A stretch of 64,000 nt of DNA from Candidatus Multivoradales bacterium (GTDB lineage Bacteria > Acidobacteriota > Thermoanaerobaculia > Multivoradales > Multivoraceae): positions 3,936,001-4,000,000 of the forward strand of contig CBDCWI010000002.1 in the NCBI GenBank assembly GCA_965223325.1, in the 5' to 3' direction. The notes beneath the pieces were generated by a model, which made no database searches, had not been told where the DNA came from, and saw only the letters and a list, made by a program, of their open reading frames with translations. Position 1 is the first letter of the stretch. Each line of letters starts with the position of its first letter. Below are positions 31,977 through 51,604 of this stretch, piece after piece. The translations under genes were made by a program, and so were the position numbers.

Positions 31977-33008
31977 ATGCCTGAAACCAAACGAGCGTTC
32001 ATGACTGGTGCTACTGGTCAGGACGGTTCCTACCTCGCCGAGCTGTTGCTCGAGAAGGACTATGAAGTCTGGGGTATGGCGCGGCGCCTTTCGACTCCGA
32101 ACGAGTGGCGGCTTCGCGACGTGCTCGACGGTCCCAACCGCGATCGCTTTCATCTGGTTGAAGGGGACCTGGGCGATTCTTCATCGATCTATCGTCTCCT
32201 GGCTGAGATCCGCCCGCACGAGGTCTACAACCTGGCAGCGCAATCGCACGTTCAGGTTTCGTTCGAGGTGCCGGACTACACGGGTGATGTCACCGCCCTG
32301 GGGTGCACGCGGCTGCTCGAGGCAATTCGTGTGCTGGGGCTCGACGCTCGCTTCTACCAGGCCTCGTCGTCGGAGATGTACGGCAAGGTTGTCGAAACGC
32401 CGCAGACCGAGGCGACGCCCTTTCACCCACGAAGCCCCTACGCGGTGGCCAAGGTCTATGCGTTTCACATCACCCGGAACTATCGGGAGGCTTTCGGTCA
32501 GTTCGCGGTCAATGGCATTCTTTTCAATCACGAGTCGCCGCGCCGTGGCGACACCTTCGTGACCCGCAAGATCACCCTTGGCGCAGCGGCGATTCGGGCG
32601 GGCAGCCAGGAGACCCTACGGCTCGGCAATCTAGACGCGAGTCGAGACTGGGGGTTTGCTGGAGATTACGTCGAGGCGATGTGGCTGATGCTCCAGGCTG
32701 AAGAGCCAGAGGACTACGTCGTTGCAATGGGCGAGACCCACACGGTGCGCGAGTTTTGCGAGCTGGCGTTTGGACGGGTGGGTCTACCGCTCGAGTGGCG
32801 TGGCAAGGGCGTCGACGAGAAAGGCTATGGGCCCGGCGGCAAGCTGCTCGTCGAAGTCGATCCCCAGTTCTTTCGCCCGGCCGAGGTCGACTTCCTGCTT
32901 GGAGACGCGACCAAAGCACGCGACGAAATCGGCTGGACGCCGAGGACGAGCTTCAAGGAGCTTGTCGAGATGATGGTCGACGCCGATATGGCCGACGCCC
33001 AGGCCTAG
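31977..33008 (+). CDS. gmd: GDP-mannose 4,6-dehydratase
   Basis: [63 protein letters not shown]. Confidence 0.97.
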
Positions 33009-34933
33009 CCGGCGGCGGTTGCACGCGGCCGAAAGAGCAGGATCGCCGCCTCTTCCTGAGCACCTTCGAGACGGGCGTCGTTGATGATCTCGGAGAGGAC
33101 CGTGATGATCTCAGCCTCGCGGCCGTCGCGCACCAGGTCGCCGAGTCGGTTCATGACGCGGTGCAGGTGAGCGGACTCGACCGGTTCGGCCATCAGGGTC
33201 GCGAAAATCTTGCTGTGGCGGGTGAGTCGGAAGTGCTCCCCCGACTGCTCGAGCTCCTCGCGCAGCTTCTCGCCAGGGCGAATACCGGTAATGAAGATGT
33301 CGATGTCTTCGCCCGGCCGTAGGCCCGACAACCGAATCATGTCGCGGGCGAGGTCGATGATCTTGACCGGTTCGCCCATGTCTAGCATGAGCACCTCGCC
33401 GGCGCGTCCCAGAGCGCCGGCCTGCAGGACCAGCCGCGACGCTTCGGGAATCGTCATGAAGTAGCGCACCATGTCTTCGTGGGTCACCGTGACCGGGCCA
33501 CCCCTCTCGATCTGCTCGCGGAAGATCGGTACCACCGATCCGGCCGAACCGAGAACGTTGCCGAAGCGCACGGCAACGAAGCGGGTTTCGGAACGTTTGT
33601 CGAGGTCCTGGATCACCAGTTCGGCGAGCCGCTTACTAGCACCCATGACCGACGAGGGGCGTACCGCCTTGTCGGTGGAGACCAAGACGAAGGAGCGTGT
33701 TCGATACTCGCTGGCCAGCTGGGCAACCATGCGTGTGCCGAAGACGTTGTTCTTGATCGCAACGGCAACGTTACGTTCGAGCAGGGGAACATGCTTGTGG
33801 GCGGCGGCGTGGAAGACGACCTCGGGTAGGTAGGTCTCGAAGGCGCCGCGCATGGCGGTCTCGTCGCCGACATCGATCACCAACGGGATGCACTCGAAGT
33901 CGTGGTCTTCCTGGATCATCTCGCGGTGAATCGCGAACAATGAGGGCTCCGAGCGCTCGATGAGGAGCAATCGATCGGGCTTGTAGGTCGCGATCTGGCG
34001 CACCAGCTCGGCGCCGATTGATCCGCCGGCGCCGGTCACCATGATGGTGCGTCCGGTGAGGAAGCGTTCGAGTCCCTTCTGGTCGATCTCGACCGGCGGT
34101 CTGCCAAGCAGGTCTTCGATCCGTACTTCACGTAGTCGTTGCACATTGACCGCCCCATCGAGCAGATCGGTCAGGTCCGGGATCACTTTGAGCTCGACGT
34201 CGAGGTGCTCGCAGAGGTCGACGAGCCGACGGATGACCCGTCGACTGGCGCGAGCACCGGTATAGACAACGAGTTCGATTTCGTTCTGGCGCACGACGGC
34301 CTCGAGGTCCGCGGTCGTGCCGAGGACCGGCGCACCACCAACACGTGTGCCAACGAGGTTCGCATCGTCATCGACGAAACCGACGACGTCGAGGCCCGAC
34401 TCAGGACGGTTTCGGCAGTCATCGGCCACCCGTGCCCCAGAGCGACCCGTTCCAACCAGAAGGGTGCGGCGGAGGCGACGGTGCGGTTCGGTCGACGCGG
34501 CTTCGAAACGCTCCCAGACGATGCGTCGCATCATGCGCAGCCCGAGAACACCGCCGAAGGCCAACGCGGTGTCGATCAGGATAATGGAAAGCGGGACACG
34601 CCATTCCTGCCAGGCTTCAGGTAGCCCAAGGCGGAGTGCGATGGCGGGGATCGCCGAGATCAGGCCAGCGCGCGCGAAGGCCTGGACCTCGCCTAGCGCT
34701 ACGTAGCGCCAGATGAATCGGTAGACCCCCAGCACGTAGAGGGTGACGAACTGCACAAGAACCACGAAGGGTGCCTGCACAAGGGCGTGGTTGAGGGCAT
34801 CGGCAGGAATGTTGAAGTCGAAGCGCAGCAGGTAGGCGGCTGCGAAGGCGGCGGCGAGAACGAGCAGATCGAGGAGGAACTGCATCTCGCGAGTGAGGTT
34901 CTTTTGCCAGATGTTGAGAAGCGAATTGGGCAT
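33005..34933 (-). CDS. Membrane UDP-GlcNAc 4,6-dehydratase (CapD/PglF/WbpM family)
   Basis: Four N-terminal TMs; [64 protein letters not shown]. Confidence 0.95.
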
Positions 34934-35064
34934 TTCGAGGGAGTAGGGCTCGGCGGAGTTGGAGGAAAAGAGGTCGAGAGATGAACCCAACGGGCAAGGT
35001 CGAGTCTAGCATAGAAATACTAGAAAACAAGCTTAAAAGAGTCTTGGGCCAGGGGGGGTCCCTC

Positions 35065-35712
35065 TCATGAGCTGAGTTCGAGGTCGCGGCGCGGGCGAAG
35101 CACTGCGACCAGGGTGGCCAAGAGCGTGCCGAGGTCGGTCAAACCGCTGCGTCGACGGCCGTACGCGAGGTAGCCCTCGAGCTTCTTCGGCAGGAGCTGC
35201 TGGCGATAGAAGTCCTCGGGGTTCTCTCCGTTCCGTCGGGCGGCTCGAAGCACGCCCTCCTCGTCGCGAAGCGTGATCGCGACGGGGTCGGTAATGCCCG
35301 GGCGCATCGCCAGGACCTCCTGCCAGCGCGGGTCGTCGAGGTCGACGTAGCGCTCGACCTCCGGCCTTGGTCCCACCAGGTCCATCTCGCCGCGCAGCAC
35401 ATTGATCAGCTGTGGGAGCTCGTCGCATTTGGTGGCGCGCAGCCACCGACCGACGGTGGTGATGCGCCGGTCTCCGGCTTCGGTGACCATCGGACCCCTG
35501 GTGGGTGCGCCGCCAACTTCGCTTCGCATGGTGCGAAACTTGAGAATCTCGAAGGGCTGTCCGCCGAGCCCGACTCGCCGCTGGCGAAACAGCACAGGGC
35601 CCGGTGAAGTCACCCGCACGGCGACTGCGGCGAGCAGCATGAGTGGAGAAAACAGCACCAGGGCGCCGGCTGCCCCCAGGAGCTGCACGCTGCGCGGCAG
35701 TCCACCGGTCAT
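35065..35712 (-). CDS. Initiating phosphoglycosyl transferase (bacterial sugar transferase, PglC-like)
   Basis: SPGPVLFRQRRVG, KFRTM, RITTVGRWLR, DELPQLINVLRGEMDLVGPRPE, RPGIT. Confidence 0.95.
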   Translation of the reverse strand: MTGGLPRSVQLLGAAGALVLFSPLMLLAAVAVRVTSPGPVLFRQRRVGLGGQPFEILKFRTMRSEVGGAPTRGPMVTEAGDRRITTVGRWLRATKCDELPQLINVLRGEMDLVGPRPEVERYVDLDDPRWQEVLAMRPGITDPVAITLRDEEGVLRAARRNGENPEDFYRQQLLPKKLEGYLAYGRRRSGLTDLGTLLATLVAVLRPRRDLELSS

Positions 35713-36944
35713 CGTGCCGCATCCTCGAGGAGCGACTGCAGAGTTCGGGTGACATGGGACACTTCTTCGTCACGCATCCCTGGGAAGACTGGCAGTGAGA
35801 TGAGACGCGGAAAGAGCGCCGTCGCCTGAGGAAGTTCGTCGGCCTGCCACCCCTGGTTCTCCGACCAGTAGGGGTGAAGATGGAGTGGGCGCCAGTGAAC
35901 GGAGAAGCCCACGCCGCGGCTGCGCAAGTCCTGGACGATCTCGTCGCGACTTCTGGTGAGCGTCTCGAGCCGCAGACGAATGGGAAACAGATGCCAGGAG
36001 TGAACGCGGTCATCGGGGTCAGGCGGACACTCGAACATCTCGTTGTCACTGAATTCATGCAGGTAGCGGCGTGCGATGGCCTCGCGCTCGCGGCGCATGG
36101 GCTCAGCGCGAGCTAGCTGGTGGAGGCCGATGGCGGCAGCAATGTCGGTGAGGTTGTACTTGTAGCCGGGAGCCAGGATTCGATAGTCCCACTGACCCGA
36201 GCCGGAGTAGCGCTTCCAGGCGTCCTTGGAAAGCCCATGCAGGGACATGAGACGCATCTCTTCGAGCAAGGTGGCATCGCTGGTGACGGCCATGCCACCT
36301 TCACCGGTGGTGATGGTCTTGTTGGCGTAGAAGGAAAAGCAGGAGACGCGCGCCGTGTTCTCGCCACAACGCTGGGTCAGAACGTTGCCGTTGTCGTCGG
36401 TTCGGGTGACCGCAGCTGGAAAGCTGTGGGCAGCATCTTCGACCATCCAGAGTTGGTGCTCGCGAGCGAAGTCTTCGAGCTCGGTCGGATCGATCAAGAG
36501 GCCCGCCACGTGTACCGGCAGCAAGCCAACCAGGGGGCCGGGCGCGGTGACTCCCAGGCGGCGTGGGAGGTCACCACTCCGCCACGCGGCGACCTTGCGA
36601 GCCGCGTCGGCCAGGCAGATGTTGCCGGTCGTTGGATCGCAGTCGACCAGCACGACGGTCGCGTGGCTGTAGCGCACGACCTCGGCGGTCGCCGCAAAGG
36701 TCATGGTGGGTACCAGGACCGCATCGTTGGGCTTCAGGCCGAGCGCGACAAGAGCCAGGTGGAGCGCCGCCGTACACGAGTTGACCGCCAGGGCATGCTC
36801 TGCGCCTACCGCCTCGGCAAACTGCTCCTCGAAGCGCCGGACACGTGGGCCGGTGGTCAACCACCCGGAGCGTAGGGCATCGCTGACTTCGCGGATCGCC
36901 TCTTCGGAGATCTGCGGTCTGAAGAAGGGCACTTCGATGGTCAT
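35709..36944 (-). CDS. DegT/DnrJ/EryC1/StrS PLP-dependent sugar aminotransferase
   Basis: SGWLTTGP, VNSCTAALHL, EDAAH, FSFYANKTITTGEGG, GYKYN. ATG at 36944 overlaps the upstream stop. Confidence 0.96.
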   Translation of the reverse strand: MTIEVPFFRPQISEEAIREVSDALRSGWLTTGPRVRRFEEQFAEAVGAEHALAVNSCTAALHLALVALGLKPNDAVLVPTMTFAATAEVVRYSHATVVLVDCDPTTGNICLADAARKVAAWRSGDLPRRLGVTAPGPLVGLLPVHVAGLLIDPTELEDFAREHQLWMVEDAAHSFPAAVTRTDDNGNVLTQRCGENTARVSCFSFYANKTITTGEGGMAVTSDATLLEEMRLMSLHGLSKDAWKRYSGSGQWDYRILAPGYKYNLTDIAAAIGLHQLARAEPMRREREAIARRYLHEFSDNEMFECPPDPDDRVHSWHLFPIRLRLETLTRSRDEIVQDLRSRGVGFSVHWRPLHLHPYWSENQGWQADELPQATALFPRLISLPVFPGMRDEEVSHVTRTLQSLLEDAAR

Positions 36945-38161
36945 GACGTGCCGCCCTCGGTAGCAGGCTCGGTGCCAGCGCGCGGCTTCGGCTGGCCTTT
37001 CGATGACACCCGGTGTGAAGCAGCTGACGGCCGCGTCGGCGACAGCGGTGTCGAGGAGAGTGCCCGCCGCCCGAGGTGCCTCAAGCGGCGCCACCAGAAA
37101 GGACCGCCTTCGACCTGACGTTCGACGACTCCCGGGTGTGCCCAGACGCGGCGCAACGCGGTGCGTGCGCCGGCGCGGGTTTCGCGACCTGCAAGCAGGC
37201 GTCGGCCGACGATCGAGCTCAGACGCACCGCGCTCGGGCCACGCTGCTCGAGAGTTCGAAGAAGTGCGGCTTCTCGGCCACGGAGAGTTGTCATGAGCCG
37301 GTCGCGGAGTCGCTTCTGTACTTCGTCTCCGGGCCAACAACGAGCTACGACGTGTGTCGAGAGCAAAACGGGGAGGCCGATGCCGAGGTCCTTGGCCCGT
37401 GTGGTCACCAGAGCGATGAACTGCTCGTCGTCCAGGTGGTCGGGTTTGGCCCGCGCGAGAAGGTGTACGTCCCACCAGTCGAGTAGGGACCGCGGTCGGT
37501 GCCCGAGCCAGGCATGGACGGCCGCGAGGATGAAGGCCCAGGCACGGTCGATAGTCCAGCCACCGTCCTCGCTCTCGATCCGGTCGGCCAGGATCAGCTC
37601 GACGGTGCGCTCAGGCAGCAGCGACCAGAGGCGGAAGTGGACCTCGAGAAGGTCGCCCTGCGGACTCTCTGCCGACCATGCGTACCCCTCTTCCTGGAGA
37701 TAGCGTTCGGAACGAACGCCGTTCCAGAGACTCTTCCAGGAAAGCCCTCCGAGTCTTGCCCGGACCACGGGGAGGTTCTGAGGGGAGACCAGAATGTCGA
37801 GATCTGACATGGGGCGGTCTTCGCGGCAGCGATGCGCCGCCGTAGCGGTATAGAGCCCCTTGATCGGGAGCCACACCACCTCAGACAACGCCTCCCTGAG
37901 AGCAGCGTGGGTTGCCTCCTGCCGCATCCATGCCGCGGTCGACGAGCGCAGAGCCTCTCGCCAAGCCTCGGGAACTTCGAAACCGTGGTCGGCGAGCCGG
38001 CGCGCCAGGGCCGGCCACAGGTCCGCCTGGTCACAGAGAGAGTCCGGCGAGCGGACGCACTCTTCGAGCGCATCCGGGTTCTGCGCCAGGGCCGAAGCGG
38101 CAAGTTCGAGGCTCTCCCACTCGCTATGCCCTGTTGCTTTCGCGTGACGGTGACGCGTCAT
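36941..38161 (-). CDS. Nucleotidyltransferase family protein (NTP_transf_5 type)
   Basis: LPIKG...RPMSDLDILV...LEVHFRL...AAVH...WWDV motif series. Confidence 0.85.
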   Translation of the reverse strand: MTRHRHAKATGHSEWESLELAASALAQNPDALEECVRSPDSLCDQADLWPALARRLADHGFEVPEAWREALRSSTAAWMRQEATHAALREALSEVVWLPIKGLYTATAAHRCREDRPMSDLDILVSPQNLPVVRARLGGLSWKSLWNGVRSERYLQEEGYAWSAESPQGDLLEVHFRLWSLLPERTVELILADRIESEDGGWTIDRAWAFILAAVHAWLGHRPRSLLDWWDVHLLARAKPDHLDDEQFIALVTTRAKDLGIGLPVLLSTHVVARCWPGDEVQKRLRDRLMTTLRGREAALLRTLEQRGPSAVRLSSIVGRRLLAGRETRAGARTALRRVWAHPGVVERQVEGGPFWWRRLRHLGRRALSSTPLSPTRPSAASHRVSSKGQPKPRAGTEPATEGGTS

Positions 38162-38973
38162 GGCGAGCCACCCTCGTCAATGGGGTCCTCGGAGGGTTCG
38201 ATGATGGCCACCCAGTGCGTACGCAGGACAGGGAGCGTTTCGCTTGCGGCGACCAACAGCCGTCGCCACGATCCAGGCTCTCGGCCCAATATGCGACGCA
38301 GAATTGGTGGCGCCAGGGTCACGGCCCGCAAGTGAATGCGACAACCTGGAAAGAGCTCTTCCAGTTCCGCAGCGGAGACCCTTCGGACCGCAGGGTTCTT
38401 CGGGTTGTCTCTTCGCAGGTCGTACCAGACCAGGGCACCACGGTGATGTAGGACGCGGCGCGCCTCGCGGCAAACCAGGCTGCGCACGCGTGGATCGAGA
38501 ATCGACGAGACGACGGTGGAGAGAATCACCAGGTCGAAGGAAGCCTCGTTCCACGGCAGTGAAGTGGCGTCACCTTCCAGGATCTCGGCACCTTCGAACG
38601 CCCGCCGCGCCTGACTGGCACGTTCAGCGTCGAGGTCGATGCCTGAGATGTTGTGCGTCGGAATCCCCCAGGATGTGAGTTCGCCGAGCCAGCCGAGCCG
38701 CCCGCATCCCACCTCGAGGCAGCGACTGTGAGGCATCGGGAAGCGGCCCGCCTGATGCAACAGGCGTACGGCTTCGCGCGACCGTTCCTGTCGCATGTGC
38801 ATCTCAGCGGGCGAAGTGGCGGCGTAGCGCCCCACCGGCACCTCATTCGTGCGCCGGCGGTATTCGGCGAGGATCCTCTCTCGTTCAGTCCTCACGTGTG
38901 AAGGATCATCGGGAGCGGGCGCAGCGCGGCGGTGTGGTTGCGCCAGGGGAGAAGTATTGGATGCCGACGTCAT
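38158..38973 (-). CDS. Class I SAM-dependent methyltransferase
   Basis: LEVGCGRLG, GDATSLPW, FDLV, RRVL...WYD. ATG at 38973 overlaps the GT2 stop. Confidence 0.88.
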   Translation of the reverse strand: MTSASNTSPLAQPHRRAAPAPDDPSHVRTERERILAEYRRRTNEVPVGRYAATSPAEMHMRQERSREAVRLLHQAGRFPMPHSRCLEVGCGRLGWLGELTSWGIPTHNISGIDLDAERASQARRAFEGAEILEGDATSLPWNEASFDLVILSTVVSSILDPRVRSLVCREARRVLHHRGALVWYDLRRDNPKNPAVRRVSAAELEELFPGCRIHLRAVTLAPPILRRILGREPGSWRRLLVAASETLPVLRTHWVAIIEPSEDPIDEGGSP

Positions 38974-40169
38974 GTCAGTCCTCCGGTGACGTCTCGAGGT
39001 TTCGACTCGCTGGCTGCGGCGCTCCGGGCCGGTGGGCGACCCAACAGCGCTCTCGAGATGCTCCGTATGAGTTGTGGCGCAAAGCGCAGCAGGCCTGCGG
39101 TGAAGCCAAGGCCATACCCCACGTGCATGGCGGCGAACGCGCAGCAGAGCAGCGCGACGAGAGCGGGGGTTGAAGAGCCCTCCGTAGCGACAACCTCTGA
39201 CTCCTGATCGGTGACATCGGTGGTCCTTCTTCGGCGTCTCCACGCAACGTGAATGGCAGCCAACAGGCTGGCGCCAAGGTAGGACAGGACGATGGCCAGA
39301 AGAACACGCGGCTCGATGGGAAGCAGGCAAAGCCCGACGAGCAACGACATGACGAATGCGGCCGGCACGAATTGGCGCGCGCTCATCTGGCGGGGGTGCT
39401 TCTTCAGAACGCGGACCTTGAACCATCCGTACTGAAGGTACTGACGGAAGAGACGACCCATCGAAGGCCGCGACCAGTACCGTGACTTCAGGTCGGGGTG
39501 CAAGACGATGCGCTCGCCCAGCTTGCGCAAGCGGTAGTTGTACTCGTCGTCTTGATTGCGTACCAGCGTTTCGTCGAAAGGACCGGCGCGTTCGAGGGCG
39601 CGGCGGCGATAGGCTGGAAAGGCGACGGTGTCGACCTCTCGAGGTCCCAGCGCCCGGTCGCCAGGCTCTGCAACGCGAAACGCCGAGCCGCCAACGCCGA
39701 AGTGCGAGGCCATGGCGAGAGAGATCGCAGTTGGGGTCAGCCCGGGCTGACCACTGGCATCATGTGCGATCGTCTCCATCGCTCCGCCGACGCCGGCGGC
39801 GTTCGAGTGCTCGAGAAAGTCGACCGCCTTCGCGATGTAGTCCGGTGCGATGACACAATGGCCATCGACGCGCACGACGTAGGCGCCGCGTGCTCTGTCG
39901 ATGGCGGTGTTCCAGCCGGTCGGGACGATTCCCGGCGGGTTGTCGAGAATGTGCACGCGGTCGCTCGCCTCCGCCTTGCGAGCGGCGGCGAGAATGCGCG
40001 GGCGCGTGGCATCTGTCGACATCCCGTCGGCAATCAGGATCTCGACCCGATCGCGGGGATAGGTCTGTTCGAGAACCGCACCAAGGCTTCGCTCGATGAA
40101 GTCCGCCTCGTTGCGAATCGGCATGATGACGCTGACGAAGGGCACGTCGGTGCCGGTTGCTTCGCTCAT
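38970..40169 (-). CDS. GT2 glycosyltransferase (ExoA-like)
   Basis: VSVIMPIRNE, ADGMSTD, VRVDGH, VDTV, RNQDDEYNYRLR, QYLQYG; C-terminal TMs. Confidence 0.92.
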   Translation of the reverse strand: MSEATGTDVPFVSVIMPIRNEADFIERSLGAVLEQTYPRDRVEILIADGMSTDATRPRILAAARKAEASDRVHILDNPPGIVPTGWNTAIDRARGAYVVRVDGHCVIAPDYIAKAVDFLEHSNAAGVGGAMETIAHDASGQPGLTPTAISLAMASHFGVGGSAFRVAEPGDRALGPREVDTVAFPAYRRRALERAGPFDETLVRNQDDEYNYRLRKLGERIVLHPDLKSRYWSRPSMGRLFRQYLQYGWFKVRVLKKHPRQMSARQFVPAAFVMSLLVGLCLLPIEPRVLLAIVLSYLGASLLAAIHVAWRRRRRTTDVTDQESEVVATEGSSTPALVALLCCAFAAMHVGYGLGFTAGLLRFAPQLIRSISRALLGRPPARSAAASESKPRDVTGGLT

Positions 40170-41581
40170 CGTGAGGCGGCCTTCCGCTGGAGCGGTCTGG
40201 GGAGTTGACGCCACTCAATGGCGCACAGAGCGAAGAGAATGCTGATGGCGGCGATGCGCATGCCGGCGTGCATCATCGTTGCCAGAGACCAGGCGCAGAA
40301 CGTGAGGATGAAGGAACGCGTCATGATCGAAGGCGCCACGAGCCAGCGCGTTGCAATCGTGCCGAGGAGAATCAGAAGAGCCAGGACTCCGAAGGCGCCA
40401 TGTTCTGCGAGCAGACGGGTGTACTCGGTGTGGGGAGCGACGAACCAACCGGTCTTGAGGAAGCGTTCGTAGGATGCGAGCCCGGCGCCGGTTCCGAGGA
40501 CAGGGTTCTCGAGGAAGAGCTCGACGTCCTGCGACGCGATCTCGGCTCGTCCTGTGCTGTTGAGCGATGTGAAGCGTTCCTCGAACGCGCCTCCGGTGAA
40601 CGAATCAAGAGCTGGAATGGCGACGAAGTAGGCGAGGGCGAACGCGAACGAGAAGAACGCCAGGAACAAGGCGCGCTGGCGCGGCCTCCTGAGGTAGTGG
40701 GCGGTGAGGACGGCCAGGCAGATGGCCAGGTTGAAGACCCCTCCTCGAGAAAAGGTCAGGACCGCTTGCAAGAGCAGGCCAAGGGCGATTCCCGAATAGA
40801 TGAGTCGTGCAGAAAGCACGCGGGTGCGCATGAAGAGAAGCAGGAAGACAAGGGTTCCCGCGCATAGAAGAGCCGACACCTGGTTGGGGCCGTAGCCGCC
40901 GCTGGCGGTGAAGTTGGCGGCGTTGCCGAACGAGAAGGAGCTGGCCGTCAACGTGCCCCGTGCTGCCACGGCGCCGGTTGTCGTCGCCGCGAGGCCGATG
41001 GCGAGTAGGAGCTTGTCGAAGTCGATCTCGTACGATGCGACGCCCGAGAAAAAGCACAGCCCGATCCCGAGCGTCAGCGGCCCCGACAGGTTGAAGCTCA
41101 AGGCGTCTTTCGCGTTGGCGAGGCTCAGTAGAGAGATCGTCACGATGGCTCCAGGCAGGAGCGCGAGTAGATAGGCGGTAGCCCAGGGTGCTGCGCTGCC
41201 CAGACGGGAGCGACGAAGGCCGGCGATCAGCATGATCGCGATGGAGGCGTACTTCCCGAACTCCCACAGAAGGCTGGCCTCGGTCATGCGCCAGAAGACG
41301 TCGAAGCAGCCGATGTAGACGACCATGGCGGTCAAGCGATCCGCTCGCCGGCTGGTGATCGCAAGGTAGAGGCCGTAGCTCAAGGCAACCAGCCCGTGGA
41401 CGGTAGAAACAACGCTCGCCAGATCGGCAGCCGCCCCGAGGATCACATGGAGTCCGATGAGGGCCATGATCTGGAAACGCGAGAGCCTCGCCGTCGGCAG
41501 ACCGTGGGCCGTCATGGGTAGCGGTCTGGTGTTTGGCTGCCTGCGCCAGGTTGTTGGCAGGGTTGTAGTGGTGACCGTCAT
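40166..41581 (-). CDS. O-antigen ligase/Wzy-family polymerase
   Basis: About 11 TMs; LTFSRGG, STGR, GTGAG, PHTEYTRLLAEHG; located inside the GT operon. Confidence 0.85.
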   Translation of the reverse strand: MTVTTTTLPTTWRRQPNTRPLPMTAHGLPTARLSRFQIMALIGLHVILGAAADLASVVSTVHGLVALSYGLYLAITSRRADRLTAMVVYIGCFDVFWRMTEASLLWEFGKYASIAIMLIAGLRRSRLGSAAPWATAYLLALLPGAIVTISLLSLANAKDALSFNLSGPLTLGIGLCFFSGVASYEIDFDKLLLAIGLAATTTGAVAARGTLTASSFSFGNAANFTASGGYGPNQVSALLCAGTLVFLLLFMRTRVLSARLIYSGIALGLLLQAVLTFSRGGVFNLAICLAVLTAHYLRRPRQRALFLAFFSFAFALAYFVAIPALDSFTGGAFEERFTSLNSTGRAEIASQDVELFLENPVLGTGAGLASYERFLKTGWFVAPHTEYTRLLAEHGAFGVLALLILLGTIATRWLVAPSIMTRSFILTFCAWSLATMMHAGMRIAAISILFALCAIEWRQLPRPLQRKAASR

Positions 41582-42885
41582 GCGGCGCGCTCCCGATCCT
41601 GCCGGTGTTCCTCGAGGGCCTGGCGGTAGAAGCGGTCGAAGCGTTCGGTCTGCTGATCGATCCTGAAGTGGTCGAGCACTCGCTGGCGGCCGGCCCGGCC
41701 GAACCGCACGCGGAGGTCACGCGCGTTGGCCAGTTTGTGCAGCTGGTTGGCGAGGGCCCGGGGATCTCGGCGCGGCACTACGAAACCGGTGACCCCGTCT
41801 TCGACGTTCTCTGCCAGGCCGGTGGCGTCGGTTGTCACCACCGGCAAACACATCGCCTGAGCCTCCAGAACCGCGTTGCAGAAGCCCTCGGAGACGGCGG
41901 TGTGGAGGAACACGTCGGCTCGGTCGAGGTGGTCCCTGGTCGACTCCGGTGATTGCCAGCCCAGCAGTCGCACCTGATCGCTCAGGCCGTATCGGTGCGC
42001 CTCGAAGGCGATCGCCTGGCGCTCGGGGCCATCACCAACGATTGACCACTGCACGTTCTGGCCTTTTCGCGCCAGTTCGGCGAGAGCCCGCACGCCATAG
42101 TGGTAGCCCTTCTTCCACACCAGTCGGCCAACCGAGACCAGGCGGAGACTCTGGTCGTCTGTCGTTTCCGACGGTCCAGAGGAGGGGGTGCGGGTGCCGG
42201 GCTTGAAGAACTCGGGGTCGATGGCCGGCGGGATCCTGTCTTTGACGAGGTCTGGAGGGCAGCCGCGTTGGCGCGCACGATGTGACAGCCCTTCGCCGAG
42301 TACATGAACGCGCGACAGGTGCGGCCAGACCTCGCGGTAGTGCTCGCGAAGGTCGGTCTCACCCTCGCGCAGGTCGAGACCGGCGTACTCGAGATCGAAG
42401 CCTCGGAAGCTGGCAGTGACGCAGATCCCCAGGAGGGCCCTCAAGTCGGCTCGGCCGCGGGCCTGTGCGCCAAACTCGAAGTGCACGATGTCCGGGCGCA
42501 AGGACATGACGGGCGCCTCGATCAGGAACGAACGCAGGGCCCCGCGTCGGTCCTCTTCAGAGCGGAGCCCGGCCCAGAACCGGTGCACTTGGCGAGGCTC
42601 TCGGAGCAAGGGGCCGAGCGCGGTGAAGATCGCTTTGAAACGGCCGATGCCGTGCCAGCTGGTGGCACTATGAATTCGACCCGCTACCCTGCGGTCGCGT
42701 AGAGCTGGTAGCGCATCGATGAGGTCGAAGTTGGCCTGGCGGCAGCAGACGTGTACGTCCCAGCCCAGATCGAGTAGGCCGGCGAAGCGACTGGCAATGA
42801 AGGTTTCCGAGCGCGAGGGAAACTCCTGGGTCAGCAGCAGGAGACGCCCTCTCTCGTCGGAGGATCGCTGTGGTCGAGCTTCCAT
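41578..42885 (-). CDS. GT4 glycosyltransferase (WcaL-like)
   Basis: FPSRSETFI, SVGRLVWKKG, VGDGP, EGFCNAVLEAQA. Confidence 0.92.
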   Translation of the reverse strand: MEARPQRSSDERGRLLLLTQEFPSRSETFIASRFAGLLDLGWDVHVCCRQANFDLIDALPALRDRRVAGRIHSATSWHGIGRFKAIFTALGPLLREPRQVHRFWAGLRSEEDRRGALRSFLIEAPVMSLRPDIVHFEFGAQARGRADLRALLGICVTASFRGFDLEYAGLDLREGETDLREHYREVWPHLSRVHVLGEGLSHRARQRGCPPDLVKDRIPPAIDPEFFKPGTRTPSSGPSETTDDQSLRLVSVGRLVWKKGYHYGVRALAELARKGQNVQWSIVGDGPERQAIAFEAHRYGLSDQVRLLGWQSPESTRDHLDRADVFLHTAVSEGFCNAVLEAQAMCLPVVTTDATGLAENVEDGVTGFVVPRRDPRALANQLHKLANARDLRVRFGRAGRQRVLDHFRIDQQTERFDRFYRQALEEHRQDRERAA

Positions 42886-42887
42886 GG

Positions 42888-44177
42888 TCAGCGGGCGCTC
42901 GCTCGAATCGGTTCGGCGACCGCTGCGTTTCGCGGAAGGTCCGGCGCGGGGCAGGTCGAGGCGGCGGAGAGCAGGAGGCCCTCGAAGTCGTCGAGCTGCT
43001 GGTCGAGCGAGAAACGCCGACAGATTGTCTGACGTGCCCTCGTGCCCAACGCCTGACGCAGTTGCGACGCGTCGGCGGCGCTGGTCAGCCGCAAGATCGC
43101 CTGGCCCATGGCGTCTGGATCGGCAGCCGGAACGAGCAGGCCATTGCTTTCGTGGTCGATCGCCTCAGCCGTGCCGTCGACATCGGTCGCAATGACGGGA
43201 AGTGCGCAGGCCATTGCCTCGAGCACGGCGTTCGAGATGCCTTCCGAAAGGCTCGCGTGCAAGAAGAGGTCAGCCGTCTGGAGGCGCGCCCGGATCTCCT
43301 CGACCGCGAGCTGTCCGGTGAGCCGGACGCGATCGGCGATCCCGAGATCGTGGGCGGCAAAGGCGATGCGTTGGCGATCCGGGCCCGCGCCGACAATCTC
43401 GAGCTCGACGTTGGCGCCCTGGTCGACGGCCTGGCTGAGGGCAACCAGAGCGTCCTCCCAGCCCTTTCGCCAGATCAGTGAACCCACGCCGACCAGCTTG
43501 TGTCGCTCAGACACCGGGTTCTCGCCGGCGGAAGGATCCCGAGGCTCGAAGAAGTGCGGATCGACTGCCGGAACGATGACCTGCGCCTTTTGAGGATCGA
43601 GGCCCAGCGTCTCCGCCGTCGTGAGCATGGCTTCTGAAACGCAGTGGACCCGCGAGGCGGCCCGGAAGGTGCGTTCCAGGGCTGCGGGAAGATGCGCCCG
43701 CTGGGGATCGTGGGGTGCGATCTGGACCTGTGAACCGCGGCAGCTGAGGACGACCGGGGTGGGCAGGAAGAAGACCGGTTCTCGTTGAATGGCACCTTCG
43801 TTCCAGGGGAAGTAGATGACGTCCCAACGTCTCGCCAGGAGTGGCAGAAGGCGACGAACTGCGGCCCGCCGATGGTCTGACGCCCAAGCCTGGCGGAGGA
43901 CCTGCCGGCCATGGTGCCCCCCTTTGATGAGCGCGCCGAAGAGCTGAGCTGCTGCGTGAACGGAGCGCCAATCGGTTGGCTGGGGAGCTAGCCTGAGGCT
44001 CGCGGGGAGTCGAGTACCAGGCGGTGCCGTCACCCACACTTCGTGTCCGCGGCCGGAAAGGCCCACCGCCAGCCTTTCCAGGAAGGTCGGCAGTGGAGGC
44101 GTGATCCCCGCAAAGACGACCCGCAGTTTCTTCGCGGGTGTTTCCTTTGGCGCAGCGGGGAGCGTTGTGCTGCTCAT
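42888..44177 (-). CDS. GT4 glycosyltransferase
   Basis: VGSLIWRKG, VGAGP, SLSEGISNAVLEAMA, TDVDG. Confidence 0.92.
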   Translation of the reverse strand: MSSTTLPAAPKETPAKKLRVVFAGITPPLPTFLERLAVGLSGRGHEVWVTAPPGTRLPASLRLAPQPTDWRSVHAAAQLFGALIKGGHHGRQVLRQAWASDHRRAAVRRLLPLLARRWDVIYFPWNEGAIQREPVFFLPTPVVLSCRGSQVQIAPHDPQRAHLPAALERTFRAASRVHCVSEAMLTTAETLGLDPQKAQVIVPAVDPHFFEPRDPSAGENPVSERHKLVGVGSLIWRKGWEDALVALSQAVDQGANVELEIVGAGPDRQRIAFAAHDLGIADRVRLTGQLAVEEIRARLQTADLFLHASLSEGISNAVLEAMACALPVIATDVDGTAEAIDHESNGLLVPAADPDAMGQAILRLTSAADASQLRQALGTRARQTICRRFSLDQQLDDFEGLLLSAASTCPAPDLPRNAAVAEPIRASAR

Positions 44178-45991
44178 GAGACACTCGCCTTCGAATCGAG
44201 ATGCCGTAGCGCGACGGCCGTCGTGAGAAGTATTGAGACGGTCCTGCCGTTGGCGCCGGAGGGGTTGCTATAGAAGTCGTCGAGCAGTTGGCTGATTGCC
44301 CGGGCCGATGTCATCTCGGGAAGCGGTGAGTCGGGCCCCAGGAGCGTGTCCTCGAGCTCGGGACGATGGCCCAGGAGCTGGACCTCCCAGTTGCGGATGG
44401 GCGCAGTCGCTCCGATGTTGAGCCGACGTTTCAGCCAGCCGAGAGCGCGGCGTGGGACTTGCAGGTCGTTGAAGCGCCGGTAGCGATAGAGATCAGCGTC
44501 GTAGGCCTGCCAGCGGACCGCGGCCAGGTCGGGTGCATGCCGCTTGAGGTATTCGATCTGGAGCTTGCGTTGGGCGAGCAGGGCAGGCGGCATGACCATC
44601 AGTTGGTCGGTCACCCGACGGTCGTAGAACGGGGTGCGTGGCCATGCCGCGTTCTCGTAGGCGCGCAGGCCAGAGAGTGTCCAACGGAATGACCATTGCT
44701 CGGTCTTCCAGGCCTTCCGTCGTAGGTCGGTGTTACGGATGTACGCCAGGCGCGCGACTTCGTTCTCGAGCATTGCGCGGGTGCTGCCGGCGGGATCGAA
44801 GCCTGCCTCTTGCGGCAGCATGTGTTCGAGGAGCCAGTGGTGACCGGCCTTGGTGGTCTTCTTCAAGATCTCCGGTACGTCGGTTGAGAGGTCGCCGGTT
44901 GCGACCTGTCCCGAGCTTCCGGAAGAGTCGAGCCAGACGTCTCCCCAGTGTGCAGCGATCACGCGATCGCCGAGCTCGGAGAGCTCGCGAATCAGCAATG
45001 CCTGACGAACCTGCGTGATGTCGCTAAAGCCTTGGGTGCGCTCGTGAACCGCGTCGAGAGCGGGGCGCGAGGCAAGTAACCCAGCTGGCACCTGGAATAT
45101 GGAAAGGGGGTAGCCGCGCCTTGCAGCTAGCTGGCCGGCGATTCTCGTCTCGACCGAATGCGGACCCCAGCCGTAGCTGTAGCACCGAAGCCGATCGCCG
45201 GCGAAGTGCTCTCTTGGAATCGCGGCGAGGGTGGAGCGTGAGTCGAGGCCGCCTGAGATGGGAACCAGAGTGCGGCGGTCACGGGTCTCTTCCGTGAGGA
45301 CCTCACGGAAGGTCGCTGCGAAGATCTCGATAGCCGAGTCGAGGTCGAGCGTGCGATCAACGTCTTCGGGCCATTCGAAGTGGCGCCTGCTACTTTGGCC
45401 GTCGAGGCCGAAGCACTCCTCGCTACCCGGGCGAACGAGACGGACCTCCCGCGCCCAGGTCTTCGAGCCGCAGAAGAAGCCGAACTGGTAGAAGGAGGCG
45501 ATCGCTGGCCAGTCGAGTCTTATTGAACCCAATTCGGACACCGCGTCGTCGAAGCGTGTACTCAGGATGACCTTTCCGGCACATCGGCTGGCGTACGCGT
45601 GGATGGTGCCGAACGGATCGGTTGCGACTCGCACCGTGTTGGACTCATGATCGATGGCGACCGCCAGGAAGCGCCCCGTCCAGGTTCGTGGCACGCCATC
45701 GCCGATCGCAAACGCCGCCAGCTGTGTGGAGGCACAGTTGTGGTTCAAGGTGTCGGCGGCGTCGCCAAGTAGCCAACCTGAGACCCGCGCGGTCGCGAGT
45801 GCGATCGTCGGCGTGCCGGGGCGTTGCGCTTCCGCGTTCGCCACCTGGACCACGGGGGCTGCGCCGGATCTTTGGTCCCAGACAACGGTGAGCCTTTCGA
45901 GGCCGAATCGTTGGATGCTTGCGGCCCTCGGATCGCGAACCGCATCGCGAGTCTCTAGAGCCGGGGCGTCTGGGATCGATAGGTTGGTCAT
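44174..45991 (-). CDS. Asparagine synthetase-related ATP-dependent amide ligase without N-terminal catalytic Cys (lasso cyclase-like)
   Basis: ATDPFG remnant of the Ntn fold, PP-loop ISGGLDSR, HWGD, RTPFYD; no Cys at the N-terminus with either candidate start (45991 or 46105). Confidence 0.82.
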   Translation of the reverse strand: MTNLSIPDAPALETRDAVRDPRAASIQRFGLERLTVVWDQRSGAAPVVQVANAEAQRPGTPTIALATARVSGWLLGDAADTLNHNCASTQLAAFAIGDGVPRTWTGRFLAVAIDHESNTVRVATDPFGTIHAYASRCAGKVILSTRFDDAVSELGSIRLDWPAIASFYQFGFFCGSKTWAREVRLVRPGSEECFGLDGQSSRRHFEWPEDVDRTLDLDSAIEIFAATFREVLTEETRDRRTLVPISGGLDSRSTLAAIPREHFAGDRLRCYSYGWGPHSVETRIAGQLAARRGYPLSIFQVPAGLLASRPALDAVHERTQGFSDITQVRQALLIRELSELGDRVIAAHWGDVWLDSSGSSGQVATGDLSTDVPEILKKTTKAGHHWLLEHMLPQEAGFDPAGSTRAMLENEVARLAYIRNTDLRRKAWKTEQWSFRWTLSGLRAYENAAWPRTPFYDRRVTDQLMVMPPALLAQRKLQIEYLKRHAPDLAAVRWQAYDADLYRYRRFNDLQVPRRALGWLKRRLNIGATAPIRNWEVQLLGHRPELEDTLLGPDSPLPEMTSARAISQLLDDFYSNPSGANGRTVSILLTTAVALRHLDSKASVS

Positions 45992-46062: not shown

Positions 46063-47430
46063 TCAGCCGGTGCCGAGGATCTTCGCCACCCATCCGTCGA
46101 CCCACTCGTTGCGCTCGAGAGCGGGGAGGGCTCGTTTGAGGGTGCTCGCGGCACGAACTTCGTTGCCGGTTTCGAACAGCGCGATGGCGTAGTAGAAGAG
46201 GAGCTCCGGGTCGCGCTCGGGATCGCCGCCGCGCTCGACGTACGTCACCGTGTCTGCCCAGTGTGATCCGCGGTAGGCGAGTCGCGCCGTGAGGTGCTGG
46301 ACGGCTGATTCGCCTGGCTGTTGATCAGCTACCTGGCGTAGTTCCGTGAGGGTCGTGGCGATCTCTTCACGCGTCTTGGCCTGGACGAGGACTCGTCGGG
46401 CGTTGGCAACCACCGCTCGCTGCTCGGCCGTCAAACCCGCCGGGGGGATCTGACCCGTCTGAAGGTCGGCGACCGATGGCGTCGCGACATCGGCGCCGCC
46501 GGCCTCGACTGCGCTGACATCGGTGGTGGTTCGGGCGCCGCTCTCGGGAGAACTCTCTGGGTCCGCTCTGTTCTCGAGCTGGGCTGGAGCGGTTGACTGT
46601 GATGCGGCAACCTGGGGCGCCCGTGCCTCGTCCGCGGCCTGCTGTCGGGCAGCGCGCTCGGCAGCCTTCCTCTCTGCGCGTTCGCGGCGCTGGCGCTGGC
46701 GACGTTCCTTTCTCGTCTCAGGCGCTGGCTGCGGCACGTCCGCTAGGGCGCCTTCCGAAGGAGTCGTGCCCGTATGGGTCAGCTCAACGCCGCCTTCGGT
46801 CGCACTGGACTCCGACCCGGCGGTTTGGGGCGAAGCAACCTCGACGTCTTGCCCTCCCGCCGAGGATTCCTCTGCGACCTCGATCAAAGTCGCATCCTCA
46901 GGCTGCGACGCCTCGCTGGGCTTCTTCTTGCGGTCGCGCCTCTTCTTCTTCTTTCCGCCGGGTGCTTCTGGCGGCTCCTCTGCCAGATGAGCGAAGCCCT
47001 GGGTCGACGCCAGAAAACTCAAGGGCACGCGTTGTTTGATCGCGGTTTCGAATGCGCTTCGCGTTTCTTCCGGGATGTTTGCGGCGGTGTACGCGCCGAA
47101 CCGTTCCTCGGCGTCGAGCAGGCGGTCGAAGGCTCTCGAGAAGCCCGCTTCGTTACCTGCCCTCTTGTTGGCGACTGCCAGAAAGGTCAGACACTCGGCC
47201 AGCATTGGTGGCTCTTCCAGAAGTCCGAAACAGGCGATCTGGAACTCGGTGGCTGCCTCTTCGGGCTGTCCGCGCTCGAGGGCAAGCCGGCCGTCTCGCA
47301 GCCGTGCCATGTAGAAGGCATCGGCGGCAAAGGCCGGCAGCGCGGTCGACAACGCAACCACGACGGCGAGGAGACCCGCGTACTTCGGGGTGTGCCTGGC
47401 GAAAGGAGAACTGGGGCGCGGCGTCAGCAT
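46063..47430 (-). CDS. Exported TPR-like protein with long low-complexity, basic/acidic linker
   Basis: Signal peptide ...PAFA; helical N- and C-terminal domains (FQIACFGLLE, LFYYAIALFETG); linker containing GGKKKKRRDRKKKP. Confidence 0.7.
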   Translation of the reverse strand: MLTPRPSSPFARHTPKYAGLLAVVVALSTALPAFAADAFYMARLRDGRLALERGQPEEAATEFQIACFGLLEEPPMLAECLTFLAVANKRAGNEAGFSRAFDRLLDAEERFGAYTAANIPEETRSAFETAIKQRVPLSFLASTQGFAHLAEEPPEAPGGKKKKRRDRKKKPSEASQPEDATLIEVAEESSAGGQDVEVASPQTAGSESSATEGGVELTHTGTTPSEGALADVPQPAPETRKERRQRQRRERAERKAAERAARQQAADEARAPQVAASQSTAPAQLENRADPESSPESGARTTTDVSAVEAGGADVATPSVADLQTGQIPPAGLTAEQRAVVANARRVLVQAKTREEIATTLTELRQVADQQPGESAVQHLTARLAYRGSHWADTVTYVERGGDPERDPELLFYYAIALFETGNEVRAASTLKRALPALERNEWVDGWVAKILGTG

Positions 47431-47501
47431 GGTGGGATTCCCGGTGGCTCGGTCAGTTGGGTCAGTGAGGAGAAAGAAGTCGAGGACGAAAGCGTTGGTC
47501 T

Positions 47502-48227
47502 TCAGGCCGCAACGAGCGCCCGGTTCTCGAGGACCGCGGCAGGGTTGTGGAGCGTCAGGAGATCAGCCAGGTCGCGGTCACAGCGGGTTGTGATCTCGTC
47601 GTACGCCTGGGCGAGAAGTGGTGGCCGGTGTTCGATGTCGTGGCAGTCGCTGGCGACGAAGTGGACCAGGCCGGCGCGCAGCATGCGGTGAACAGACTCT
47701 GAAGGGCCTAGCCCGAAGTCGCCTACGACGCTCGTTGCCGTGACCTGCATCAGAGCGCCGAGGTCGATCAGGTCGGCCACGCGTCCGAGGTCGTGGGCGA
47801 GCCAGAGAAGGCACTCAGGATGGGCGATGATCGGTTGAATCCCAGCGAGCCTGAGTTCGTAGACTGCGTCTTCTGGCGTTGGGTGCTCAGCCGTTCGACC
47901 CCATTCGAGGAGCAAGTAGCGGGTGTCGGCTAGCCGGTTGACGCCCAGGTCGTCGAGCGAGGAGGCCAGGAGCAGTTCGTTGTCGATGCGTACCTCGCCC
48001 CCGAGCTCGAGCCGCAGCAGTTCACCAATCTCCTGCCTGAGCTCGGTGAGCTTTTCTTCGAGTTCGCCGCGGTCGGTGTTGTCGAAGTGCGGGTGGCGCT
48101 GGTGGGGGGTAGCCACCATCGCGGTGATCCCCTGCGCGGCCGCGTGTTGGCACAGCGCTACCGCCTCCTCGAGGGTTGCGGGGCCGTCGTCGACGTTCGG
48201 CAGGATGTGACAGTGCAGGTCGATCAT
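47502..48227 (-). CDS. CpsB/CapC PHP-family tyrosine phosphatase
   Basis: MIDLHCHILPNVDDG, ATPH, IAHPE, ASDCH; coupled to wzc. Confidence 0.93.
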   Translation of the reverse strand: MIDLHCHILPNVDDGPATLEEAVALCQHAAAQGITAMVATPHQRHPHFDNTDRGELEEKLTELRQEIGELLRLELGGEVRIDNELLLASSLDDLGVNRLADTRYLLLEWGRTAEHPTPEDAVYELRLAGIQPIIAHPECLLWLAHDLGRVADLIDLGALMQVTATSVVGDFGLGPSESVHRMLRAGLVHFVASDCHDIEHRPPLLAQAYDEITTRCDRDLADLLTLHNPAAVLENRALVAA

Positions 48228-50479: not shown

Positions 50480-50511
50480 TCGTTTGTGTAGTAGCTCAGA
50501 GGAAGAAAAAA

Positions 50512-51348: not shown

Positions 51349-51355
51349 CTGTATG

Positions 51356-51385
51356 ATTCTAGAGACAATGAATGCAAGTTTTCAA
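51356..51385 (-). promoter_or_regulatory. Candidate sigma70 promoter giving a leaderless wza transcript
   Basis: Minus strand TTGAAA-N18-TAGAAT-N7-ATG; no Shine-Dalgarno before the ATG. Confidence 0.45.
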
Positions 51386-51486
51386 ACGGTTTTCGGGCGG
51401 GGACAGGTGGAATCGGAGCACGAAAACAGCGTTAAACTTGTTTTATGTGTCGCGATGCCTGCGAATCGGCCGTCGAACACTAGATT

Positions 51487-51522
51487 TGCGAGAATCATGC
51501 CGTTTTGCAGTTCCCGCAAAAC
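51487..51522 (-). promoter_or_regulatory. Candidate sigma54 (-24/-12) promoter with adjacent palindrome upstream of wza
   Basis: Minus strand CGGCATGATTCTCGCA (GG-N10-GC) at 51487-51502; palindrome GTTTTGC-N7-GCAAAAC at 51502-51522. Confidence 0.45.
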
Positions 51523-51604
51523 AGTGCTCTCGGGGCCGAGCGGGCCGTACAATGGCCAAACTGACACGACTCCGCTCAACCCCAATGGAGCGAGGAATCG
51601 CCCG

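Follow-up and report, generated by a model that had tools for sequence, protein, structure and literature searches.

A mosaic exopolysaccharide operon in Acidobacteriota with a putative LPP/lasso-type tailoring enzyme in its rare-sugar block

The closest described systems for the locus reported here are clusters for phosphorylated peptides. According to Zyubko 2019 (PMC6993621), the phosphoserine of pseudomycoidin needs the nucleotidyltransferase PsmN, encoded in the pseudomycoidin lasso cluster, together with its DxD motif, to carry one or two hexoses. According to Popov 2026 (PMC13381572), clusters for linear polyphosphorylated peptides (LPPs) consist of a signal-peptidase-like LppS, the RRE (recognition element of peptides that are made by the ribosome and modified after translation, RiPPs) LppB, an HprK-like kinase LppK, an NTP transferase LppN and an exporter. 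The paper describes them as restricted to Bacillota, where capsule loci house them, frequently with a paeninodin-type lasso cluster as neighbour; deletion of lppN in B. subtilis caused no change, and the authors suspect that a rare substrate comes from a partner encoded outside the cluster. Here, we describe a 64,000-nucleotide stretch of a Candidatus Multivoradales bacterium (Acidobacteriota; contig CBDCWI010000002.1, positions 3,936,001 to 4,000,000; the whole stretch is referred to as the window), in which an exopolysaccharide (EPS) operon encodes both an NTP_transf_5 (PF14907) nucleotidyltransferase and an AsnB-related enzyme, and in which a peptide cassette lies at 61.7-64 kb.

Rare-sugar synthesis of the kind considered below is known from the Campylobacter pgl pathway with its dehydratase PglF, aminotransferase PglE and transferase PglC. 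For AsnB-type enzymes in surface polysaccharides, Veith 2020 (PMC7468200) names WbpS, WbqG and PGN_1234 as uronamide-forming, and also reports that cargo proteins of type IX secretion (T9SS) are amide-linked through their C-termini to an amino sugar. Literature searches under the names NTP_transf_5 and PF14907 yielded no functional study, and no study was found on the AsnB-like family without N-terminal Cys described here or on an Acidobacteria locus of this type.

The nucleotidyltransferase of the window resembles PsmN and LppN by family and context, not by direct alignment: those enzymes travel with an HprK-like kinase and a PqqD-type RRE, relatives from the window enzyme's own subfamily abut PqqD genes, and the DxD motif is kept here, too. 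The EPS setting also recalls the capsule loci of LPP clusters. In contrast to both systems, the gene is translationally coupled to rare-sugar genes at a distance of 24 kb from the cassette, the host is a member of a phylum other than Bacillota, and the cassette adds a radical S-adenosylmethionine (SAM) enzyme, has an NTP transferase available in trans only, and is accompanied by no MsbA-type or other exporter that could be seen at 51-64 kb. The rare-sugar genes resemble the pgl initiating block in combining a membrane Polysacc_synt_2 dehydratase, a DegT aminotransferase and a small Bac_transf protein, but they include no PglD-type acetyltransferase, with a methyltransferase and the NTP_transf_5 enzyme in that place. 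We favor a composite reading, to which we assign a probability of roughly 0.5: the EPS operon is a mosaic of two modules, and the nucleotidyltransferase probably serves the neighbouring cassette.

Two coupled modules and a nearby peptide cassette

Six-frame open reading frame (ORF) lists and family scans revealed a single minus-strand chain from the AsnB-like gene to the initiating transferase, with the dehydratase gene of the rare-sugar block beyond it:

44174-45991, minus: AsnB-related PP-loop enzyme without N-terminal Cys, 605 amino acids from its ATG, first gene of module A (family matches, alignments, AlphaFold2 model, fold comparison)
42888-44177, minus: GT4 glycosyltransferase, GT4a, ATGA-coupled to the AsnB-like gene (Pfam)
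41578-42885, minus: GT4 glycosyltransferase, GT4b (Pfam)
40166-41581, minus: Wzy_C protein, polymerase or ligase/O-oligosaccharyltransferase-like, last gene of module A (Pfam, 51.4 bits)
38970-40169, minus: GT2 glycosyltransferase, start of module B, ATGA start at 40169 (Pfam; ortholog in genome G176)
38158-38973, minus: class-I SAM methyltransferase (Pfam)
36941-38161, minus: NTP_transf_5 nucleotidyltransferase (Pfam, 68.2 bits against a cut-off of 31.2)
35709-36944, minus: DegT/PglE-like sugar aminotransferase (Pfam, 353.9 bits; TIGR03588, 322 bits, under that model's cut-off)
35065-35712, minus: small Bac_transf polyprenyl-phosphate sugar-phosphate transferase of PglC size, initiating (family scan)
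33005-34990, minus: PglF/CapD-like membrane UDP-N-acetylhexosamine (UDP-HexNAc) 4,6-dehydratase, start codon uncertain (Polysacc_synt_2, 371 bits)

According to a junction script, start and stop codons overlap as ATGA at 7 of the 8 gene boundaries from the AsnB-like gene to the initiating transferase; the lone non-overlapping junction, GT4a/GT4b, reads TGAccATG. The chain of mostly ATGA overlaps that an earlier note on this DNA had described was thus confirmed.

The cassette announced in the same note at 61.7-64 kb was also found, with its S24-like peptidase, kinase, PqqD and radical SAM/SPASM genes:

59710-61143, plus: Wzy_C protein heading the cassette operon (family scans)
61080-61676, plus: tetratricopeptide repeat (TPR) protein (family scans)
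61673-62203, plus: S24/signal-peptidase-like protein (family scans)
62200-63147, plus: P-loop kinase (family scans)
63144-63425, plus: PqqD (56.9 bits)
63418-64000, minus: radical SAM gene, C-terminal SPASM part; the gene continues past the window (family scans)

The S24-like peptidase, kinase and PqqD genes overlap one another, and past the window end follow the rest of the radical SAM gene, a 56-residue precursor frame ending in Ser-Ser and a second initiating transferase. The cassette is collinear in genomes G365 and G451. No NTP_transf_5 gene lies inside the cassette itself.

In the composite reading, two separately inherited modules would have been joined into one translationally coupled EPS operon. 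Module A (AsnB-like gene, GT4a, GT4b and Wzy_C) would build part of the repeat unit, with the AsnB-like enzyme adenylating a carboxyl group of either a sugar or the lipid-linked repeat unit, followed by glutamine-free amide formation; amide chemistry is what we consider most likely for this enzyme. Module B (GT2, methyltransferase, NTP_transf_5, DegT, small initiating transferase and PglF-like dehydratase) would make and prime a first sugar of the 4-amino-4,6-dideoxy-HexNAc type, as suggested by its pgl-type enzyme families. The nucleotidyltransferase would be the PsmN/LppN-type tailoring enzyme of the nearby cassette, now lodged in the sugar operon, and would add a sugar or nucleotide-derived group to a serine phosphorylated by the cassette kinase, the candidate donor being the rare sugar made by the adjoining module B enzymes. 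Gene order, coupling, family membership, motif integrity, synteny and distribution are observations; we infer both chemistries as well as the link in trans between nucleotidyltransferase and cassette. If a link between peptide and sugar exists, the PsmN precedent points to a phosphodiester on serine.

Several further features of the cassette region should be noted. A second polyprenyl glycosylphosphotransferase, full-length with 474 amino acids (L147, 1906-3330, minus), adjoins the 56-residue precursor frame, and the same arrangement was found in G451. A Wzy_C gene leads the peptidase/kinase/PqqD operon in three genomes (59710-61143, plus, in the window; L106 in G365; L148 in G451), and such a cassette-linked, ligase-type Wzy_C enzyme could itself join glycan to peptide. 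The cassette kinase and its homologues carry PF27840 in precomputed annotation; our own scan, with a Pfam version that does not include this family, gave weak PEPCK_ATP and ScmC matches only.

Contexts and phylogeny of the nucleotidyltransferase

The nucleotidyltransferase is the single NTP_transf_5 copy of its genome. Its K101, G102, D120, D122, E173 and H175 are invariant nucleotidyltransferase residues, the G...DxD and E/H motifs are intact, and all of the 40 subfamily sequences compared share G102, D120 and D122. The AlphaFold2 model has a pLDDT (predicted local distance difference test) of 90.7 and gives weak matches to Pol-beta-type folds (MenT1, JHP933 and ANT(2'')-Ia; E 2e-4 to 1e-2), and in the ESM Atlas the protein falls in NTP_transf_5 clusters.

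An exhaustive homologue search returned 119 subfamily representatives at E<=1e-10, compared to just 4 from a word-based search; related loci were sought with a 10-row alignment. With subfamily membership set at a hidden Markov model (HMM) E<=1e-91, 32 other loci were examined, 11 of them genomic and 21 on metagenome contigs. The rare-sugar block or part of it was present in 10 of the 32 (L099, L100, L138, L139, L117, L119, L120, L123, L124 and L130). This recurring block consists of PglF, DegT, the small transferase and the methyltransferase, in the order methyltransferase, nucleotidyltransferase, DegT, phosphoglycosyl transferase and PglF (MT-NTP5-DegT-PGT-PglF); the PglF-like dehydratase is the most persistent neighbour of the nucleotidyltransferase (L099, L100, L138, L117, L119, L120 and L124), and a methyltransferase ortholog adjoins it in L099, L117, L119, L120 and L124. 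At six of the 32 loci (L140, L142, L144, L146 and the near-duplicates L135 and L136), PqqD is encoded within 5 kb. In L142 (genome G424), the nucleotidyltransferase gene is divergent from a complete cassette, 53 nucleotides away, in which Pfam identified a C25 peptidase, an S24/S26-like peptidase, a kinase-like gene, a 76-residue frame, a radical SAM protein and PqqD. A lasso cluster is divergent from the nucleotidyltransferase in L140 (G492), and L144 and L146 have weak kinase-like frames beside PqqD and the nucleotidyltransferase. Since members of its own subfamily stand beside cassettes or a lasso cluster, the nucleotidyltransferase most likely tailors the cassette peptide.

Two observations concern these loci themselves. 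The lasso cluster of G492, a class-level relative (L140, 7142-9451, minus), encodes PqqD, a B2-like protease frame, an HprK-like kinase and a PRMT-like methyltransferase, and its Asn_synthase cyclase is split over several frames, through either a frameshift or an assembly error. Furthermore, a protein of approximately 1150 residues with a C-terminal, gingipain-type Peptidase_C25 domain is encoded next to the PqqD/nucleotidyltransferase genes at four loci (L142, 2973-6530; L144, 929-4366; L141, 1111-4656; L135, 11382-14735).

A maximum-likelihood tree of 38 rows, from which L136, fragments below 280 aligned residues (including L130) and a weak second L100 frame were left out, placed the subfamily in one group (33 rows, support 96/94), in which the early branches are cassette-adjacent. 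Nine of the 10 EPS-embedded copies, including that of the window, form part of a single 16-row clade (support 91/92) that contains no cassette-adjacent copy and is nested among cassette-adjacent branches. The EPS-embedded copy of G143 is the sister of the cassette-adjacent copy of G424 (support 100/100). As the root was set by midpoint only, the tree suggests, rather than shows, the direction of movement.

At the genome level, 401 genomes of the phylum were surveyed, counts that take in the unpublished genomes G152 and G049. Both the kinase family and NTP_transf_5 were present in 164, the kinase alone in 13, NTP_transf_5 alone in 93 and neither in 131. NTP_transf_5 thus occurs in 164 of the 177 genomes with the kinase family compared to 93 of the 224 without it, although the corresponding odds ratio overstates the association, since relatedness makes the genomes non-independent. 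When the 150 best matches of each family are compared, 7 kinase/NTP_transf_5 pairs are no more than 3.2 kb apart. Cassettes in G179, G291, G282 and G365 are adjoined by more distant NTP_transf_5 genes; in the last of these, the gene is located upstream of the Wzy_C gene heading the cassette operon, where the window has CysNC. Three genomes (G000, G451 and G176) combine one EPS-embedded NTP_transf_5 gene each with a cassette that has no copy of its own.

The earlier note had counted the nucleotidyltransferase as a member of the cassette. Its single copy, the proximity of PqqD at 6 of the 32 loci and the co-occurrence with the kinase family support this claim in part; at 10 of the 32 loci, the gene is located in a sugar block instead. 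One rival is that the enzyme has a role in the sugar pathway only, nucleotidylylating or tailoring the 4-amino-4,6-dideoxy-HexNAc or the lipid-linked primer, and that the nearness of the cassette is coincidental. The ATGA overlaps with the methyltransferase and DegT genes fit this idea, as do the conservation of the MT-NTP5-DegT-PGT-PglF block across several genomes and metagenome contigs whose examined flanks lack cassette genes, the presence of ANT(2'')-Ia, which adenylylates an amino-sugar hydroxyl, among the near folds, and the lack of a PglD-type acetyltransferase in the block. Nevertheless, we consider a role in sugars alone rather unlikely, given that same-subfamily members stand next to PqqD cassettes or a lasso cluster without sugar genes in the vicinity, that the sister copies of G143 and G424 occupy two different contexts, that the family co-occurs with the kinase family, and that the sole experimental datum for the family, obtained with PsmN, is peptide tailoring.

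Still, a number of observations weigh against the composite reading. Besides its distance from the cassette, the nucleotidyltransferase gene is ATGA-coupled to sugar genes on both sides; 16 of the 32 subfamily loci have neither sugar genes nor PqqD nearby, many of them on contigs below 6 kb; and in L118 the gene stands between fabI-like and dnaE genes. The cassette-adjacent copy of G365 forms a separate, very divergent branch in the tree. In G500, two subfamily copies are not accompanied by any kinase match at E<=1e-5, only weak kinase matches were found in G409, G415 and G452, and G005 has a cassette and no NTP_transf_5 gene, so that a cassette can do without one. As for module A, neither the window nor the recurrent neighbours of the AsnB-like genes were seen to include a sugar dehydrogenase that would form a uronic acid.

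The AsnB-like protein and its glycosyltransferase neighbours

In agreement with the earlier note, the AsnB-like protein retains the PP-loop, and an N-terminal Cys is missing: it starts with MTNL, without Cys at position 2, and contains PISGGLDSRS at residues 244-253. The same note had called it lasso-cyclase-like, a classification that our comparisons do not bear out. The protein scores 23.4 bits with Pfam Asn_synthase and 33.5 bits with TIGR01536 (cut-off 267.1), the sole NCBIfam match listed, and at E<=0.001 it matches neither the lasso-cyclase models NF033535 and NF033561 nor the WbpS-type model TIGR03108. A whole-genome scan with PF00733 detected nine other places and not this gene. Relatives from the family reach 30-49 bits with TIGR03108 (cut-off 816.9) and 38.5 and 26.3 bits with the two lasso-cyclase models (cut-offs 525 and 300). 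As they match the AsnB, WbpS-type and lasso models about equally, and far below the cut-offs, the family is AsnB-like and not specifically lasso-cyclase-like. It shares with lasso cyclases the AsnB-like two-domain architecture, the PP-loop and the lack of a working glutaminase, but the two-domain fold with an SGGxDS PP-loop is common to the whole AsnB superfamily.

Full-length homologues of the protein number in the hundreds, with about 40% identity. In a 79-row family alignment, the PP-loop, D351 and approximately 45 further positions are invariant, Cys is present at position 2 in a single row, and the N-domain has no conserved Cys. A pseudoenzyme was considered as well and is unlikely in view of these invariant positions. 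In the ESM Atlas, the protein falls in clusters labeled 'hypothetical protein' or Asn_synthase. The AlphaFold2 model (pLDDT 89.6) shows a two-domain AsnB fold, for which Foldseek found TsnB9, beta-lactam synthetase, carbapenam synthetase (CarA) and AsnB as the closest solved structures (E 7e-17 to 1e-12, over both domains); TsnB9 (7ylz) is also the top sequence match in the PDB (1.9e-13). Beta-lactam synthetase and CarA are not known to carry the Cys nucleophile either, and such Cys-less AsnB-fold enzymes do form amides. Despite this best two-domain structural likeness, identity to beta-lactam synthetase, carbapenam synthetase and TsnB9 is only 13-16%, these enzymes work in small-molecule pathways whereas the window family is located in glycan loci, and they differ from it in its long helical C-terminal extension. 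A predicted complex of the AsnB-like protein (residues 26-605) with GT4a (residues 15-429) had a score of 0.00, obtained with no controls alongside, and counts neither way.

For the neighbourhood analysis, 80 loci were kept from 206 relatives in a collection of species genomes. In GC-rich loci, greedy ORF calling picks spurious long antisense frames; therefore, six-frame ORF sets were used with phmmer and HMMs. Synteny was counted by direct query of the window proteins against all six-frame ORFs, with loci that have enough flank as denominators and E<1e-40 as the threshold for GT4a orthologs. A GT4a ortholog was present in 61 of 72 loci, directly adjoining the AsnB-like gene in 48 of them, a GT4b ortholog in 63 of 68, and a downstream Wzy_C ortholog in 45 of 57 (flanks of at least 9 kb); Pfam scans of four whole loci agreed with these counts. 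Single-linkage ORF clustering merged the GT4s with the AsnB-like genes and was used just to spot clusters of upstream canonical AsnB and Wzt genes; a Wzt ABC ATPase is encoded upstream in 35 of 49 loci. The family extends across about ten phyla (Acidobacteriota, Chloroflexota, Verrucomicrobiota, Bacteroidota, Actinomycetota, Desulfobacterota, Armatimonadota, Planctomycetota, Pseudomonadota and Rhodothermales) and is thus a large Cys-less, AsnB-related family with which two specific GT4s and Wzy_C travel along.

Additional genes recur at these loci. An unrecognised N-terminal half of 240 residues and a GT2 domain make up a protein of approximately 545 residues that follows GT4b at 52 of 57 loci (L012, 13936-15570; L043, 14952-16604; L085, 14061-15656) and is missing from the window operon. 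Furthermore, 26 of 63 loci (L028, 6701-8584; L085, 6877-8730; 24 others) encode a canonical glutamine-type AsnB with an MCGI start and TIGR03108 as its best match; it is located no more than 3.5 kb upstream of the Cys-less AsnB-like gene, from which it is separated by one GT4 gene. This pairing does not occur in the window; the five canonical AsnB genes of the genome lie elsewhere.

The earlier note had also proposed that the AsnB-like ligase is a missing member of the cassette, and here the distribution tells otherwise. Searches of the 80 loci with phmmer and profile HMMs detected no kinase, PqqD, peptidase or NTP_transf_5 gene (0 of 80 each), and generic radical SAM genes in two. Unlike lasso cyclases, the family thus has no PqqD, B2 protease or precursor beside its genes in any of the 80 loci; in the window, the nearest PqqD is 17 kb away, and the genome has no match over the cut-off to Transglut_core3 (PF13471, B2 protease). 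Strong AsnB-like members were found in 7 of the 401 genomes, of which 4 have the kinase family (background 177 of 401) and 4 have NTP_transf_5 (background 257 of 401). The family was not found in G451, G424, G492 and G415, which are four of the five relatives with the cassette or the same nucleotidyltransferase. Of these, G451 represents a second genus in the window's own family, and its supercluster is collinear with the window, including the second initiating transferase, the cassette, CysNC, Wza/Wzc, Wzy, the nucleotidyltransferase and PglF, despite which it has no AsnB-like/GT4a/GT4b block. With 0 of 80 loci holding cassette genes, no enrichment, and this block missing from G451, the AsnB-like gene is distributed independently of the PqqD cassette, the very outcome that the earlier note had named as refuting its proposal; the protein is part of a widespread block for sugar building rather than of the cassette.

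A second rival concerns the activity of the AsnB-like protein, which could amidate a uronic or other sugar acid with free ammonia, as a WbpS-like enzyme that has lost its glutaminase or receives ammonia from a partner. Like WbpS, WbqG and PGN_1234 (TIGR03108, eps_aminotran_1), which are uronamide-forming according to PMC7468200, it is a PP-loop enzyme of the AsnB fold encoded among surface-polysaccharide glycosyltransferases, its PP-loop is intact, and a true member of the WbpS/eps_aminotran_1 type is a frequent neighbour of the family, in the 26 of 63 loci mentioned above. The window protein differs from that type in its missing Cys and its lack of a TIGR03108 match, no canonical AsnB is encoded in the window, no sugar dehydrogenase was seen in the locus, and the retention of two different AsnB-type genes side by side suggests two reactions. 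Ammonia appears to us a possible, though not the probable, amine; it would be a special case of module A in the composite reading and does not contradict it.

Less probable still is a hybrid of RiPP and EPS that does without the AsnB-like enzyme. Here, the nucleotidyltransferase would join a UDP-4-keto/4-amino-6-deoxy-HexNAc or the lipid-linked primer through a phosphodiester to the phosphorylated C-terminal Ser of the 56-residue peptide modified by the radical SAM enzyme, and a peptide-capped or peptide-primed polysaccharide would be exported; we regard this as improbable. The full model of the earlier note, in which ligase and nucleotidyltransferase are both cassette members and a peptide or amino acid is amide-linked to the glycan as a RiPP-EPS hybrid, can draw on the location of all genes in one EPS supercluster, on the amide-forming Cys-less relatives and on the amide links of T9SS cargo (PMC7468200), but it is very improbable in the face of the independent distribution of the AsnB-like family, the lack of lasso-cyclase matches, the fact that the true lasso cyclase beside the nucleotidyltransferase in G492 is a different Asn_synthase gene, and the PsmN precedent, which points to a serine phosphodiester instead of an amide.

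The remaining locus and its meaning for NTP_transf_5 and AsnB-like enzymes

Upstream of the AsnB-like gene, the operon continues with genes that are collinear in G451 (46063-51348):

50512-51348, minus: Wza (family scans)
48227-50479, minus: Wzc (family scans)
47502-48227, minus: CpsB-type phosphatase (family scans)
46063-47430, minus: 455-residue low-complexity protein, without Pfam or NCBIfam family

With Wza, Wzc, Wzy_C, an initiating phosphoglycosyl transferase and glycosyltransferases, the locus has the features of a Wzy-dependent EPS locus; a Wzx flippase was not identified by the Pfam and NCBIfam scans of the window. Besides the low-complexity gene at 46063-47430 (minus), those at 51305-52405 (plus), 52421-53734 (minus) and 55376-57286 (minus) are conserved genes without Pfam or NCBIfam family, and three of these four have orthologs in G365 and G451. 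A bifunctional sulfate adenylyltransferase/adenosine 5'-phosphosulfate (APS) kinase (57410-59149, plus; 923 bits) is encoded between a Wzy_C gene and a 636-residue gene and is kept at that place in G451. Its presence within the EPS supercluster suggests a sulfated polymer; no sulfotransferase was recognised in the supercluster.

Among the NTP_transf_5 enzymes of phosphorylated lasso and LPP peptides, LppN was silent in a heterologous host. The locus described here suggests that an LPP/lasso-type tailoring enzyme has been relocated into the rare-sugar block of an EPS operon in another phylum. The subfamily has two homes, either beside a peptide cassette or inside a PglF/DegT rare-sugar block, and the latter names a concrete candidate donor pathway together with a small set of genes. 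LPP-like cassettes, here with a radical SAM enzyme, are also extended from Bacillota to another phylum. Moreover, the Cys-less AsnB-related family, which is tied to two GT4s in many phyla, offers a target for a new sugar-amide modification.

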